A DNA stretch of 16,082 nt from a virus. Under the pieces are notes generated by a model. That model worked only from the letters and a program-made list of their open reading frames with translations. It did no database searches and had not been told where the DNA came from. The DNA lies in UHGV virus genome UHGV-0136597, one strand, 5' to 3'. Positions 4,923 through 15,502 of the stretch are shown one piece after another. Numbering within the stretch: the stretch's first letter is position 1; every line of letters begins with the position of its first letter. The position numbers and the translations under genes were made by a program.

Positions 4923-4998
4923 TGGTGCTGGTTAACGGACTTGAACCGCTACCCATTCGCTTACAAGGCGACTGCTCTACCATTGGAGCTAAACCAGC
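4923..4998 (-). tRNA. tRNA-Thr (anticodon UGU), phage-encoded
   Basis: Minus-strand 76 nt: 7-bp acceptor stem GCTGGTT/AACCAGC, D-arm GCTC-CAATGGTA-GAGC, anticodon loop CUUGUAA, 5-nt variable loop, T-arm AGCGG-TTCAAGT-CCGTT, discriminator A and encoded CCA. One G27-A43 mismatch. Hand-folded, not run through a tRNA finder. Confidence 0.55.
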
Positions 4999-5003
4999 AT
5001 ATT

Positions 5004-5078
5004 TGGCGGGACAGCGTGGACTCGAACCACGATAAGAAGGTTAACAGCCTTCCGTAATGACCTTTATACGACTGACCC
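5004..5078 (-). tRNA. tRNA-Asn (anticodon GUU), phage-encoded, atypical
   Basis: Minus-strand 75 nt: anticodon arm GAAGG-CUGUUAA-CCTTC, T-arm CGTGG-TTCGAGT-CCACG, encoded CCA. The acceptor stem has a T-T mismatch and the D-stem is only 3 bp, so it may be divergent or partly degenerate. Confidence 0.45.
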
Positions 5079-13254: not shown

Positions 13255-13449
13255 CTATTTGTTTTTCTTGTTGCTTGGGAAAGGACGAACTTCCTCTCCA
13301 ATCACACTGCCATCAGGCTTTACCGTAACCATAATGTTACGGCCTGCCAGAATGGCCTTGCTGATAGCGCACTGGATTACACCAAAGTCACTGGCTGCTT
13401 TAGCCTGTCCATGGATTTTGGCGTAATCGGCAAGTGTCATTCGAATCAT
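13255..13449 (-). CDS. cro: Cro repressor
   Basis: 64 aa from the third Met ([33 protein letters not shown]...SNKKNK), paralleling lambda Cro. GGAGAG SD is correctly spaced for this ATG. Confidence 0.85.
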
Positions 13450-13480
13450 ATGCACTCTCCGTTATTAACCATGAACAAAG

Positions 13481-13544
13481 AATACTACAGGTATTCAAAG
13501 CAATCAATACTCAGGGTATTTTTAGTTTAAGTACCTTAGCTATT
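13481..13544. promoter_or_regulatory. Right operator OR: three 15-bp dyad sites (AATAC-N5-GTATT) overlapping divergent PR and PRM
   Basis: AATACTACAGGTATT (13481-13495), AATACTCAGGGTATT (13506-13520) and the degenerate AGTACCTTAGCTATT (13530-13544), spaced 24-25 bp start to start. Candidate PR is TTGATT-17-TATTCT on the minus strand. cI ATG sits about 12 nt past the last site, suggesting a near-leaderless PRM transcript. Confidence 0.6.
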
Positions 13545-13555
13545 AGAATTAAGCT

Positions 13556-14272
13556 ATGGAAAATAAAAAATCACTGACGACAGAACAGCTCGAAGACGCT
13601 AAGCGGCTTAAGGCTTTGTATGAGTCAAAAAAGAAAGAATTGGGAATAACCCAATACTCAATCGCTGATGAACTGGGTATCACCCAAGGAGCGGTAGGGC
13701 ATTATCTTAATGGCAGAAACGCGCTAAACGTTGAGGTTGCATCTGGTTTTGCACGATTGTTGCAAGTCTCAATTGCTGATTTTAGCCAGTCAATTGCTGC
13801 CAAGGTTGCAGAACAGGCAGAAAGCCTTAAGAGCGATGCCAACGTAAGGTATGCAGGGGAATACAGAGCAGGAAAGAGGTATCCGGTGTTAAGCAGTATC
13901 CAGGCTGGCTCGTGGTGTGAAGCATGCGAACCATACACCATTAAAGACATAGATGTTTGGCTTGAGTCTGACGCGCATATTCAAGGTAATGCGTTTTGGC
14001 TTAAAGTGGAAGGTGATTCAATGACGGCACCGGTTGGGTTAAGCATTCCAGAGGGAACATTCGTTCTTTTCGATACCGGAAGGGAGGCGATCAACGGCAG
14101 CTTGGTCATAGCAAAACTTTCTGACTCTAACGAAGCAACATTCAAGAAGCTGATAATCGACGGCGGAAATAAATACCTCAAGGGACTTAATCCTGCATGG
14201 CCTCTCGTGCCAATCAATGGAAACTGCAAGATTATAGGCGTTGCAATTGAGACAAAACTAAGGCTGGTTTGA
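13556..14272 (+). CDS. cI: CI prophage repressor (HTH N-terminal domain plus S24/LexA-like autopeptidase C-terminal domain)
   Basis: 238 aa with an HTH segment (ITQYSIADELGITQGAVGHYLNG) and a C-terminal domain (FWLKVEGDSMTAPVGLSIPEGTFVLF...ATFKKLIIDGGNKYLKGLNPAWP) resembling the P22 c2 / lambda cI cleavage domain. Divergent from cro across the operators. Confidence 0.9.
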   Translation: MENKKSLTTEQLEDAKRLKALYESKKKELGITQYSIADELGITQGAVGHYLNGRNALNVEVASGFARLLQVSIADFSQSIAAKVAEQAESLKSDANVRYAGEYRAGKRYPVLSSIQAGSWCEACEPYTIKDIDVWLESDAHIQGNAFWLKVEGDSMTAPVGLSIPEGTFVLFDTGREAINGSLVIAKLSDSNEATFKKLIIDGGNKYLKGLNPAWPLVPINGNCKIIGVAIETKLRLV

Positions 14273-14289
14273 TCACGCAAGGGGCGATT

Positions 14290-14658
14290 ATGGTTGGAAC
14301 CGCTATAGCAAGCTTTTTTGGGATGTTGGCAATCTCGACAATTTACGTCTTAGCGCATGCTTTTATTGCGAAATCTCTATCAGAAAAAATAAGCCAGGCT
14401 TGGGCGCATAGATCAGCTCGTTTCATGATTCTTGTGATCATAGCAATACAAGGGATATCTGCATTTATCCTCTATGGATCAAGCTTATACCTATTGTATC
14501 AAGGCGCGACATTTACGCCTTACACCAGTGATTACGGAACTCTATACGATGGTAGTGAAGACATCACTGTGGCTTGGATCGTCTTTGGTTTATCTATGGC
14601 CGTGTCTGTTGTAGCAGACATCATTAAGGTAATTCTCGTCTTAACCTTCGCTGACTAA
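14290..14658 (+). CDS. Hypothetical 3-TM membrane protein co-directional with cI (rexAB-slot accessory gene)
   Basis: ATG 17 nt after the cI stop with AAGGGG SD (the ORF-track TTG start at 14269 is rejected). 122 aa with three long hydrophobic segments. No family recognised. Confidence 0.6.
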   Translation: MVGTAIASFFGMLAISTIYVLAHAFIAKSLSEKISQAWAHRSARFMILVIIAIQGISAFILYGSSLYLLYQGATFTPYTSDYGTLYDGSEDITVAWIVFGLSMAVSVVADIIKVILVLTFAD

Positions 14659-14744
14659 CCCATAATCCCGGCAGCAATAGCTATCGGGATCCACTTCACA
14701 TATCCCGCATAAAAATCACTGAACAAGCAGACAGCGAAAAAATA

Positions 14745-14829
14745 AATATCCTTTGTATTCATTTGTTTATCATTATTTCATCAAAAATAAATACCTTGGG
14801 TATTTACACAATAAAATACCTACAGTATT
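14745..14829. promoter_or_regulatory. Left operator OL: three 15-bp dyad sites of the OR type, with candidate PL directed at N
   Basis: AATATCCTTTGTATT (14745-14759), AATACCTTGGGTATT (14790-14804) and AATACCTACAGTATT (14815-14829). Candidate PL is TTTACA-17-TATTCT on the plus strand overlapping the last two sites. Confidence 0.55.
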
Positions 14830-14876
14830 CTTTAGCCATCAGCAGGACGCTGGAAGCCAAACGGAACAGATTGGCA

Positions 14877-14918: not shown

Positions 14919-15229
14919 ACCAAAGAGTAGTTGGCTTTGGGGTGGCGTGAAGTGCAGCTGCACGACGGCAACCGGAAGATAAGCACCCGGCGCGTCACCG
15001 CCAAAGTCAATTCCATAGGCGAAATGCAGCCGCCAAACATAGCCAATGCTGCACATGCAACAGGAGGATTTATGTGAATGCATAACTTCAAAACCGAGGT
15101 TAATTAAATCTCTCGATCCGAGCATTGACCTATTAGGTGGCGAGATGCTCTTTCTGCCCCTCAGTTCGAGGGGCCAGAAACCACTTTGCAATCACTATCA
15201 ATTCCAAAGTTGTTTCATCGGAGGTCAAC

Positions 15230-15502
15230 ATGACAGTAGTCATTACATATCTGGCTGACGATAACGCCAGAAATCGCCGCAGAGCACGCAGACAGGCTCA
15301 ACGTGAACAGGCAATGCAAGAGCAGCGACTGGCGCGAAAAATTGCGCTAAAGCTCTCTGGTTGCGTCAGAGCAGACAAAGCAGCATCACTTGGCAGCCTT
15401 CTCAGCAAGAAGGCAGATGAATGCAGTGGAAGTATTTGCCTGCCAAACGTAGCCATTTACTCGGCAGGCTACCGGAAATCAAAACAACTGACGGCGAGGT
15501 AA
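15230..15502 (+). CDS. N: N-like transcription antiterminator (P22 gene 24-like) with an arginine-rich motif
   Basis: 90 aa from the ATG at 15230 (GGAGG SD 6 nt upstream): MTVVITYLADDNARNRRRARRQAQREQ...LPNVAIYSAGYRKSKQLTAR. The arginine-rich N-terminus and C-terminal tail resemble P22 gp24 as recalled. The ORF-track N-terminal extension is rejected. Confidence 0.8.
   Translation: MTVVITYLADDNARNRRRARRQAQREQAMQEQRLARKIALKLSGCVRADKAASLGSLLSKKADECSGSICLPNVAIYSAGYRKSKQLTAR

Follow-up and report, generated by a model that had tools for sequence, protein, structure and literature searches.

What purpose does the single small gene directly behind a phage repressor gene serve? The question is raised by the window analysed here, the whole 16,082-nucleotide stretch of the UHGV virus genome UHGV-0136597, in which one open reading frame (ORF), hkaS, lies just past the cI repressor gene. 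We find that hkaS is a real, selected protein-coding gene, far beyond chance, and that it is inherited together with one cI lineage. The sequence feature itself is already known: its annotation dates from 2001 and PHROGs lists it, without an assigned function. From its position we tentatively propose that the product would exclude other phages from the lysogen, and we weigh this against several other explanations.

The gene and the gap in front of it are placed as follows.

14273..14289, plus strand: spacer between cI and hkaS, 17 nucleotides; it carries the Shine-Dalgarno sequence and is too short for a promoter or terminator
14290..14658, plus strand: hkaS coding sequence, 122 amino acids and a stop, with ATG at 14290 and TAA at 14656-14658

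A preliminary description of this DNA had an ORF beginning 17 nucleotides past the cI stop, on the same strand and with its own Shine-Dalgarno sequence. The coordinates bear this out. The Shine-Dalgarno sequence is AAGGGG at 14279-14284, 5 nucleotides from the ATG. Four further lineages, L003 (Salmonella), L007, L013 (Hafnia-type) and L015 (E. coli CH468), have AAGG(A/G) equally far from the start, although their spacers are otherwise unlike. The end of the ORF was misplaced in that description at 14707, which is 49 nucleotides beyond the actual stop at 14658 and includes a downstream hairpin. Some gene callers use a 129-amino-acid form that starts at an in-frame TTG at 14269. We rejected this form; stop codons close the extension in L015, L013 and L003, and ATG 14290 is therefore the conserved start.

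Across the homologous loci, protein identity to the window declines in both genes; it is listed for each lineage.

L015 (E. coli CH468): cI 100%, HkaS 95.9%
L013 (Hafnia-type): cI 95.8%, HkaS 82.0%
L007: cI 88.7%, HkaS 51.6%
L003 (Salmonella): cI 86.1%, HkaS 59.8%

Between the window and L013 the synonymous divergence (dS, by the Nei-Gojobori method) is 0.665 for hkaS and 0.742 for cI, the nonsynonymous divergence (dN) is 0.097 and 0.022, and dN/dS is 0.15 and 0.03, respectively. Comparisons between the deeper lineages reach saturation at synonymous sites in hkaS and cI alike, with a proportion of synonymous differences (pS) of about 0.8, and the nonsynonymous proportion (pN) is 0.27-0.33 for hkaS versus 0.07-0.08 for cI. 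Over 79 loci from IMG/VR the synonymous diversity (piS) is 0.0275 in hkaS and 0.0255 in cI, whereas the ratio of nonsynonymous to synonymous diversity (piN/piS) is 0.26 in the former and 0.012 in the latter, and 24 HkaS protein variants are found versus 6 of cI. The matching synonymous divergence indicates that the two genes share one history. hkaS is under purifying selection, which is much looser than that on cI. Among the 146 complete E. coli genomes that carry the pair, cI is at least 99% identical in 144 and the hkaS segment in 13 only.

The changes in HkaS within E. coli (F10L, V20G, I50V, I51M, T93S, V94M and others) are conservative and mostly helical. Residues 93-94 fall into two haplotypes in IMG/VR, TV in 44 copies and SM in 35-36, and the V20 of the window and of HK620 is rare there, found in 2 of 80 copies with G otherwise. 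Positive selection on the periplasmic loop was considered and rejected, the replacements being conservative swaps in transmembrane (TM) segments at a piN/piS of 0.26.

Could the frame nevertheless be non-functional, a chance frame or a decaying remnant in the 3′ untranslated region of cI? It has no known domain, its annotation has never gone beyond 'hypothetical', and a few frameshifted or truncated variants are known (P0004, P0005 and P0007-P0009). Against this stand the low pN relative to pS at saturating divergence, the dN/dS of 0.15 at a dS of 0.67, a length of exactly 122 codons with zero indels in lineages down to 52% identity, the conserved Shine-Dalgarno motif, an ORF that is intact in all 80 of the 80 viral-contig copies in IMG/VR, and a confident predicted fold. 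The non-functional reading is effectively refuted, and we regard it as essentially excluded.

The linkage of hkaS to its repressor is as strict as the data sets allow us to see. In every locus read, the gene order is cro (leftward), followed by cI, hkaS and N (rightward, in the orientation of the window), and in every genome and metagenome locus read hkaS is accompanied by cI. The 16 phage records with a cI at least 99% identical are the same 16 that have hkaS. Across complete E. coli genomes cI is found in 146 genomes at 147 places, and hkaS likewise; with 5426 genomes searched, hkaS is thus chromosomal in about 2.7%. In IMG/VR a full cI precedes hkaS by 17-19 nucleotides in 79 of the 79 loci that have upstream DNA. 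The genes further out do vary: the replication genes may be a DnaB-type helicase, a Toprim/AAA_25 primase-helicase or of lambda-P type, the antiterminator is N_peptide or N36, and the recombinase is Erf, RecT or Rad52. The carriers span the P22-like podovirus HK620 (Lederbergvirus) and the HK97-like siphovirus HK140 (Hendrixvirinae). Since the surrounding modules and the virion types differ, what hkaS moves with is the immunity cassette between the left and right operators (OL and OR), here of HK620 type (OR-cro / cI-hkaS-OL), rather than a module for the virion or for replication.

One of these loci is unusual in its surroundings. In L015 (E. coli CH468, NZ_CM166354, 1274-2887) cro, cI and hkaS are intact beside a truncated head-completion (gp4) pseudogene, which sits where cII and the replication genes would be expected. 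This is apparently a degraded prophage that keeps its immunity cassette.

To which family does the protein belong? By tblastn it is 100% identical over 120 amino acids to the hkaS product of coliphage HK620 (AF335538, product 'unknown'), and an exact-sequence look-up returns AAK28867.1 and AFH20797.1, 'HkaS protein'; other sources label it 'hypothetical protein'. The family phrog_6534 (function unknown) matches residues 1-122 of 122 at E 1.1e-78. In HK620 the same protein lies in the same place between cI and OL; the phage of the window is a different mosaic, with other replication genes and an insertion of about 204 base pairs in the N leader that it has in common with HK140. The 16 phage records found by tblastn include HK620, HK630, HK140, mEpX2, HZ41, HF4s, phi296, phi367, 611R6 and two Stx2c phages. 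A word-indexed search gave 12 clusters from Escherichia, Salmonella and Hafnia, with identities down to 52%, and the members of the HkaS clusters add Enterobacter. A profile built from seven members, searched against 1.84 billion representatives clustered at 50% identity, retrieved one full-length protein and a 44-residue fragment. HkaS thus appears, as far as these sequence searches reach, to be an orphan family of very few members that keeps to lambdoid phages and prophages of enterobacteria.

The preliminary description recognised no family for the protein, neither RexB nor SieB. That part holds, and no Pfam, NCBIfam or PADLOC family is found either; the protein was, for all that, already catalogued as hkaS and phrog_6534. 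The profile searches, structure prediction and PADLOC scan suggested in the same description were run, and no named functional or defence family matched. The Pfam scan gave no family at E up to 1, the PADLOC-DB v2 scan 0 defence models at E up to 10, and NCBIfam no significant match, the best holin-model score being 12.9 bits versus a cut-off of 40.2, in one homologue only. A sequence profile search of the PDB gave 0 matches, and fold searches returned generic helical bundles and nothing specific. Profile-profile alignment with hhalign gave probabilities of 0.7% for lambda RexB, 1.8% for lambda SieB and 0.1% for 434 Hex. For hkaS, its accessions and its PHROG identifier we found no relevant paper in the searchable literature. 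HkaS is therefore placed in hkaS/phrog_6534 and in the positional class of accessory genes in repressor operons, and in no named functional family.

The protein itself is almost all membrane, and its parts are predicted as follows.

14296..14370, plus strand: TM1, residues ~3-27, with a small-residue face G3-x3-(A/G)7-x3-G11
14371..14421, plus strand: cytoplasmic loop, residues 28-44, basic, with four lysine or arginine residues and a short amphipathic helix at 31-38
14422..14499, plus strand: TM2, residues ~45-70, with an invariant Q54 and a conserved YLLY(Q) end motif
14500..14565, plus strand: periplasmic loop, residues 71-92, acidic, rich in tyrosine, free of lysine and arginine, including a small beta-hairpin; variability peaks in the distal half of the loop
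14566..14655, plus strand: TM3 and C-terminus, residues 93-122, with D110 and K113 within the helix

That the 122 amino acids hold three hydrophobic segments, as had been described, agrees with both hydropathy (~3-27, 45-70 and 93-120) and the AlphaFold2 model, which has three long helices. This model, made from a seven-sequence alignment, has a mean predicted local distance difference test score of 92.3 and a predicted template modelling score of 0.79; its helices are at 2-29, 31-38, 41-74 and 89-121, and it forms the small hairpin in loop 2. The second loop (71-92) has four aspartate or glutamate residues, several tyrosines and zero lysine or arginine, versus four of the latter in the first loop (28-44). 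Because of this distribution, by the positive-inside rule, HkaS is predicted to be a three-TM inner-membrane protein with its N-terminus and loop 2 outside and with loop 1 and the C-terminus inside.

Conservation is unevenly spread over these parts. As mean pairwise identity across five lineages, the cytoplasmic loop (28-44) reaches 71% with 9 of 17 residues invariant, and the last 13 residues (110-122) 84% with 10 of 13 invariant (D110, K113 and ILVLTFAD). The periplasmic loop (71-92) is at 52% (4 of 22 invariant) and the first half of TM3 (93-109) at 45% (3 of 17). The motif YLLYQGATFxPY at the periplasmic end of TM2 is well conserved, if not strictly invariant, and polar residues that are invariant inside helices are Q54, S106, D110 and K113. 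Taken with the predicted topology, the most conserved parts of HkaS would lie on the cytoplasmic face.

When would such a protein be made? The promoters PL and PR are both directed away from hkaS, and a consensus scan from cI to hkaS found no promoter or terminator site. With a 17-nucleotide spacer that lacks signals and PL and PR pointing away, co-expression with cI is the simplest reading, as for rexAB, stk, hex and bstA: on this architecture PRM would drive hkaS together with cI in lysogens and PRE would do so during establishment, and hkaS would lie outside the PL and PR lytic transcripts.

The slot downstream of a lambdoid cI holds rexAB in lambda, stk in 933W and hex in 434 (PMC3564112), and bstA of BTP1 lies in the slot downstream of its repressor, which has been called a 'hotspot' (PMC8585504). 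The preliminary claim that other lambdoid phages carry exclusion genes here is sustained by these four cases. For genes cotranscribed with lambdoid repressors, the documented functions are mostly phage exclusion (PMC3564112). The relatives of the cI of the window are more varied. In Serratia phage OS31 (cI 71% identical) the slot is empty and a canonical terminator stands straight behind cI; Erwinia phage 49 (cI 65%) has an unrelated soluble ORF of 200 residues, Midgardsormr38 a P63C-domain protein, and phage 434 (cI 52%) has hex (L008, 2609-3013), annotated 'repressor protection protein'. Given this unrelated cargo, genes for phage defence may not be the only ones that the slot takes. In the row for the cI match of phage Huey, a PagP lipid-A acyltransferase annotation is listed beside the repressor, its position not confirmed.

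HkaS is like several known proteins in part and like none of them throughout. Lambda RexB is also a small polytopic inner-membrane protein, encoded in the same slot and on the same strand past cI and ahead of OL, with presumed PRM and PRE expression. It shares no sequence or profile similarity with HkaS, however, which has three predicted TM segments and 122 amino acids against the 144 of RexB, and lambda pairs RexB with the sensor RexA, whereas there is no rexA-like gene beside hkaS. The hex gene of 434 is, like hkaS, a single accessory gene directly behind a related cI; it is cotranscribed from PRM and named for heterologous exclusion. Its product differs from HkaS in having an unrelated sequence and one N-terminal hydrophobic stretch with a soluble body, and hex overlaps the cI stop, whereas hkaS is 17 nucleotides apart from it. 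BstA has the same kind of position, immediately behind a prophage repressor, is highly expressed in lysogens and is a proven defence (PMC8585504). Unlike HkaS, it is not reported as a membrane protein and localises to sites of phage DNA replication; bstA also accompanies a wide range of repressors and occurs outside prophages, whereas hkaS keeps to a single cI lineage. A lone inner-membrane prophage protein that blocks DNA delivery is SieA of P22 (PMC10461980). It resembles HkaS in that one small inner-membrane protein made by the prophage suffices, but Pfam and PHROGs scans gave no homology to HkaS, and sieA lies outside the repressor operon. T4 Imm and HK97 gp15 are further single inner-membrane proteins of superinfection exclusion. 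HkaS would belong to a kind already known, that of small membrane proteins transcribed together with the repressor of a lambdoid phage, and its presence should not surprise a specialist.

What, then, might HkaS do? The same slot holds rexAB, stk, hex and bstA, which makes a role in exclusion plausible by position. The reading that we favour, tentatively and short of thinking it probable, is that HkaS is an inner-membrane exclusion factor expressed in the lysogen and directed against heteroimmune phages. Made in the lysogen, it would protect the cell against these superinfecting phages at the inner membrane, and it would do so by interfering with genome entry or with the entry conduit, as P22 SieA does; a triggered, membrane-permeabilising form of abortive infection is our second choice. 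The block to entry is preferred over a pore because the protein is almost all membrane and has no sensor partner, and because SieA sets the precedent of a single inner-membrane prophage protein that blocks DNA delivery. Constant co-expression with an essential repressor, in a gene that is almost never disrupted, further suggests that HkaS is not overtly toxic, which would fit a block to entry better. Several results weigh against exclusion. The searchable literature holds no published HkaS phenotype, and the scans described above gave no PADLOC model, no significant Pfam or NCBIfam family and no specific fold match. In a protein that blocks entry one might look for conservation on the periplasmic face, yet the best-conserved surfaces are the cytoplasmic ones and the periplasmic loop is poorly conserved. 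The changes seen within E. coli include no arms-race hot spot. Finally, every hkaS found accompanies the one cI lineage; a defence moron seldom behaves so, and a role specific to this immunity type is suggested.

A pore-type effector of abortive infection, acting like RexB alone or like a holin, is an unlikely alternative. HkaS would oligomerise, open on a cue from an infecting phage (one of its membrane proteins, for example, or a fall in membrane potential), depolarise the cell and so abort the infection. Class I holins of the lambda S type have three TM segments with the N-terminus out and the C-terminus in. HkaS is alike in its size, about 100-120 residues, and the same number of TM segments and the same topology are predicted for it from hydropathy and AlphaFold2; the small-residue face of TM1 and the invariant polar residues inside the helices could be read in the same sense. 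The slot holds abortive-infection systems in lambda, where RexB is a reported ion channel, and in BTP1 (PMC8585504). On the other hand, hkaS is a single gene with no sensor partner, it resembles RexB no more than the hhalign probability given above, and its holin score is below threshold. It has neither the charged C-terminal tail of a holin (it ends in ...LVLTFAD) nor the dual-start motif, having a single conserved ATG, and it lies in an immunity region rather than a lysis cassette, in a lysogenic and not a late context. A lethal protein that is constantly co-expressed with cI would also be hazardous, yet every one of the IMG/VR copies is intact. Cargo of lysogenic conversion that aids the host envelope, with no part in conflict between phages, seems to us quite unlikely; examples would be tolerance to stress, antimicrobial peptides or bacteriocins, or modulation of a transporter. 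In its favour, the slot is a hot spot of mosaicism whose cargo varies (PMC8585504), the nearest cI relatives carry unrelated genes, the Huey row has its unconfirmed PagP annotation, and hkaS shows moderate constraint without the signatures of an arms race. Its survival with cro and cI in the apparently degraded CH468 prophage fits too, but is equally explicable by selection for immunity. HkaS has no similarity to a known envelope or stress family, and the mostly exclusionary record of repressor-cotranscribed lambdoid genes (PMC3564112) tells against envelope cargo.

Does the strict linkage instead mark a regulator? 434 Hex, in the same slot beside a cI 52% identical, protects the 434 and P22 repressors from RecA-stimulated cleavage and does not protect lambda cI or LexA (PMC3564112). 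A Hex-like, immunity-specific HkaS would act through its cytoplasmic loop and C-terminus on the cognate repressor or on the induction pathway, and would tune lysogen stability or the lysis-lysogeny decision rather than attack other phages. We think this less probable than envelope cargo. Absolute and long-term co-inheritance with one cI lineage only is what a repressor-specific partner predicts, the most conserved surfaces are predicted to face the cytoplasm, and expression from PRE, if the architecture is read correctly, would put HkaS at the decision point. HkaS is, however, without similarity to Hex and nearly all embedded in the membrane, with about 17 cytoplasmic loop residues to reach a DNA-bound repressor. 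Its protein sequence evolves about 4-5 times faster than that of cI between lineages, and about 20 times by piN/piS within E. coli, whereas a direct partner should co-vary closely with cI, and the linkage could just reflect the small size of the immunity cassette. A wider form of this idea, which we consider improbable, would make HkaS the third part of the HK620-type immunity switch, inherited along with the others and equivalent in function to 434 Hex but tethered to the membrane. The cytoplasmic loop and C-terminus would then act on the cognate repressor or its RecA-dependent cleavage, and the stability or induction of the prophage would follow the condition of the envelope or the arrival of a phage.

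Few parts of a prophage are expressed as well as the repressor operon, and the accessory genes that it carries (rexAB, stk, hex and bstA) have time and again proved to be instructive systems of defence or regulation. hkaS is present in the tractable laboratory phages HK620, HK630, HK140 and mEpX2, and its function has been blank for more than 20 years. If HkaS excludes phages, it would be a minimal system at the level of the membrane, a single 122-residue protein with a confident predicted fold, and would add a model without counterpart in PADLOC, the defence library scanned here. If its target is instead the repressor or induction, HkaS would show that cargo bound strictly to a single immunity type is regulatory and not defensive.

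The immunity region around hkaS contains the following further features.

13480..13545, no strand assigned: operators OR1-OR3, between cro and cI
13556..14272, plus strand: cI repressor, 238 amino acids, HTH_3 (E 8e-10) and Peptidase_S24 (E 5e-24)
14665..14690, plus strand: stable hairpin, 7 nucleotides past the hkaS stop, no U-tract, z -3.1
14744..14760, no strand assigned: probable OL3, operator-like site 14745-14759, core AATATCCTTTGTATT
14789..14805, plus strand: OL2, operator-like site 14790-14804
14814..14830, plus strand: OL1, operator-like site 14815-14829
14803..14831, plus strand: PL-like promoter, -35 at 14803-14808 and -10 at 14826-14831, directed toward N and away from hkaS
15230..15502: N (N_peptide, E 5e-15), preceded by nutL

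The cI of the window is 99.6-100% identical to those of HK620, HK140 and mEpX2, and the PRM promoter that serves cI-hkaS would, if the HK620 annotation is a guide, lie within 13480-13545. Downstream of hkaS, the preliminary description expected OL and PL rather than another gene, and the hairpin, three operator sites, PL-like promoter, nutL and N are indeed what follows. From hkaS to OL/PL there is no other conserved gene, and between cI and OL hkaS is the one ORF.

The hairpin has no U-tract, and no terminator was called there by the consensus scan. A hairpin also follows hkaS in L003 (z -2.9) and L007 (z -2.1). As the three sequences are unrelated, this argues for a conserved 3′-end structure that stands behind hkaS and not behind cI, and at 14665-14690 it is likely to be the 3′ end or an RNA stabiliser of the cI-hkaS transcript.

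The third operator calls for a correction of the HK620 annotation. The core AATATCCTTTGTATT has one mismatch to AATAC-N5-GTATT, and the operator at 14744-14760 is kept 45 base pairs from OL2 in L003, in L007 (as a perfect match), in L013 and in the outgroup, Serratia phage OS31. In the HK620 GenBank record, OL3 is instead put at what corresponds to 14767-14783, and 14740-14770 is labelled as a terminator, 'tIMM'. The stretch so annotated is not conserved and has no hairpin, and the placement of OL3 and tIMM in that record is probably wrong. We rejected tIMM as a terminator for its lack of a hairpin and because it shares sequence with the conserved third operator. Operator-like sites within hkaS itself (14445 and 14486) were also rejected: with two mismatches they are about what chance would give, and neither L003 nor L007 retains them.

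An antisense ORF at 14655-14762 on the minus strand, MNTKDIYFFAVCLFSDFYAGYVKWIPIAIAAGIMG, converges on hkaS, and its ATG abuts the third operator. With 35 hydrophobic codons it was a candidate partner or toxin and was discarded, as it shrinks to 10 amino acids in L003 and 3 in L007. Judged from these sequences, only its operator-derived start is conserved, and it is probably not a gene.

Three further observations concern the neighbourhood. The insertion of about 204 base pairs in the leader from nutL to N (window ~15012-15215) is also in HK140 and absent from HK620, HK630 and mEpX2; it is flanked by short TCAATTCCA repeats, and HK140 annotates a 41-codon ORF that begins about 60 base pairs upstream of it and extends into it. 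For cro (window 13255-13455, minus strand), the mechanical ORF list starts at GTG 13455 (66 amino acids), whereas all homologues start at ATG 13449 (64 amino acids, MIRMTLADY...). Two adjacent tRNA genes, at 4926-4998 and 5007-5078 on the minus strand (Rfam 61.5 and 55.3 bits), lie in the late or regulatory region of the phage.

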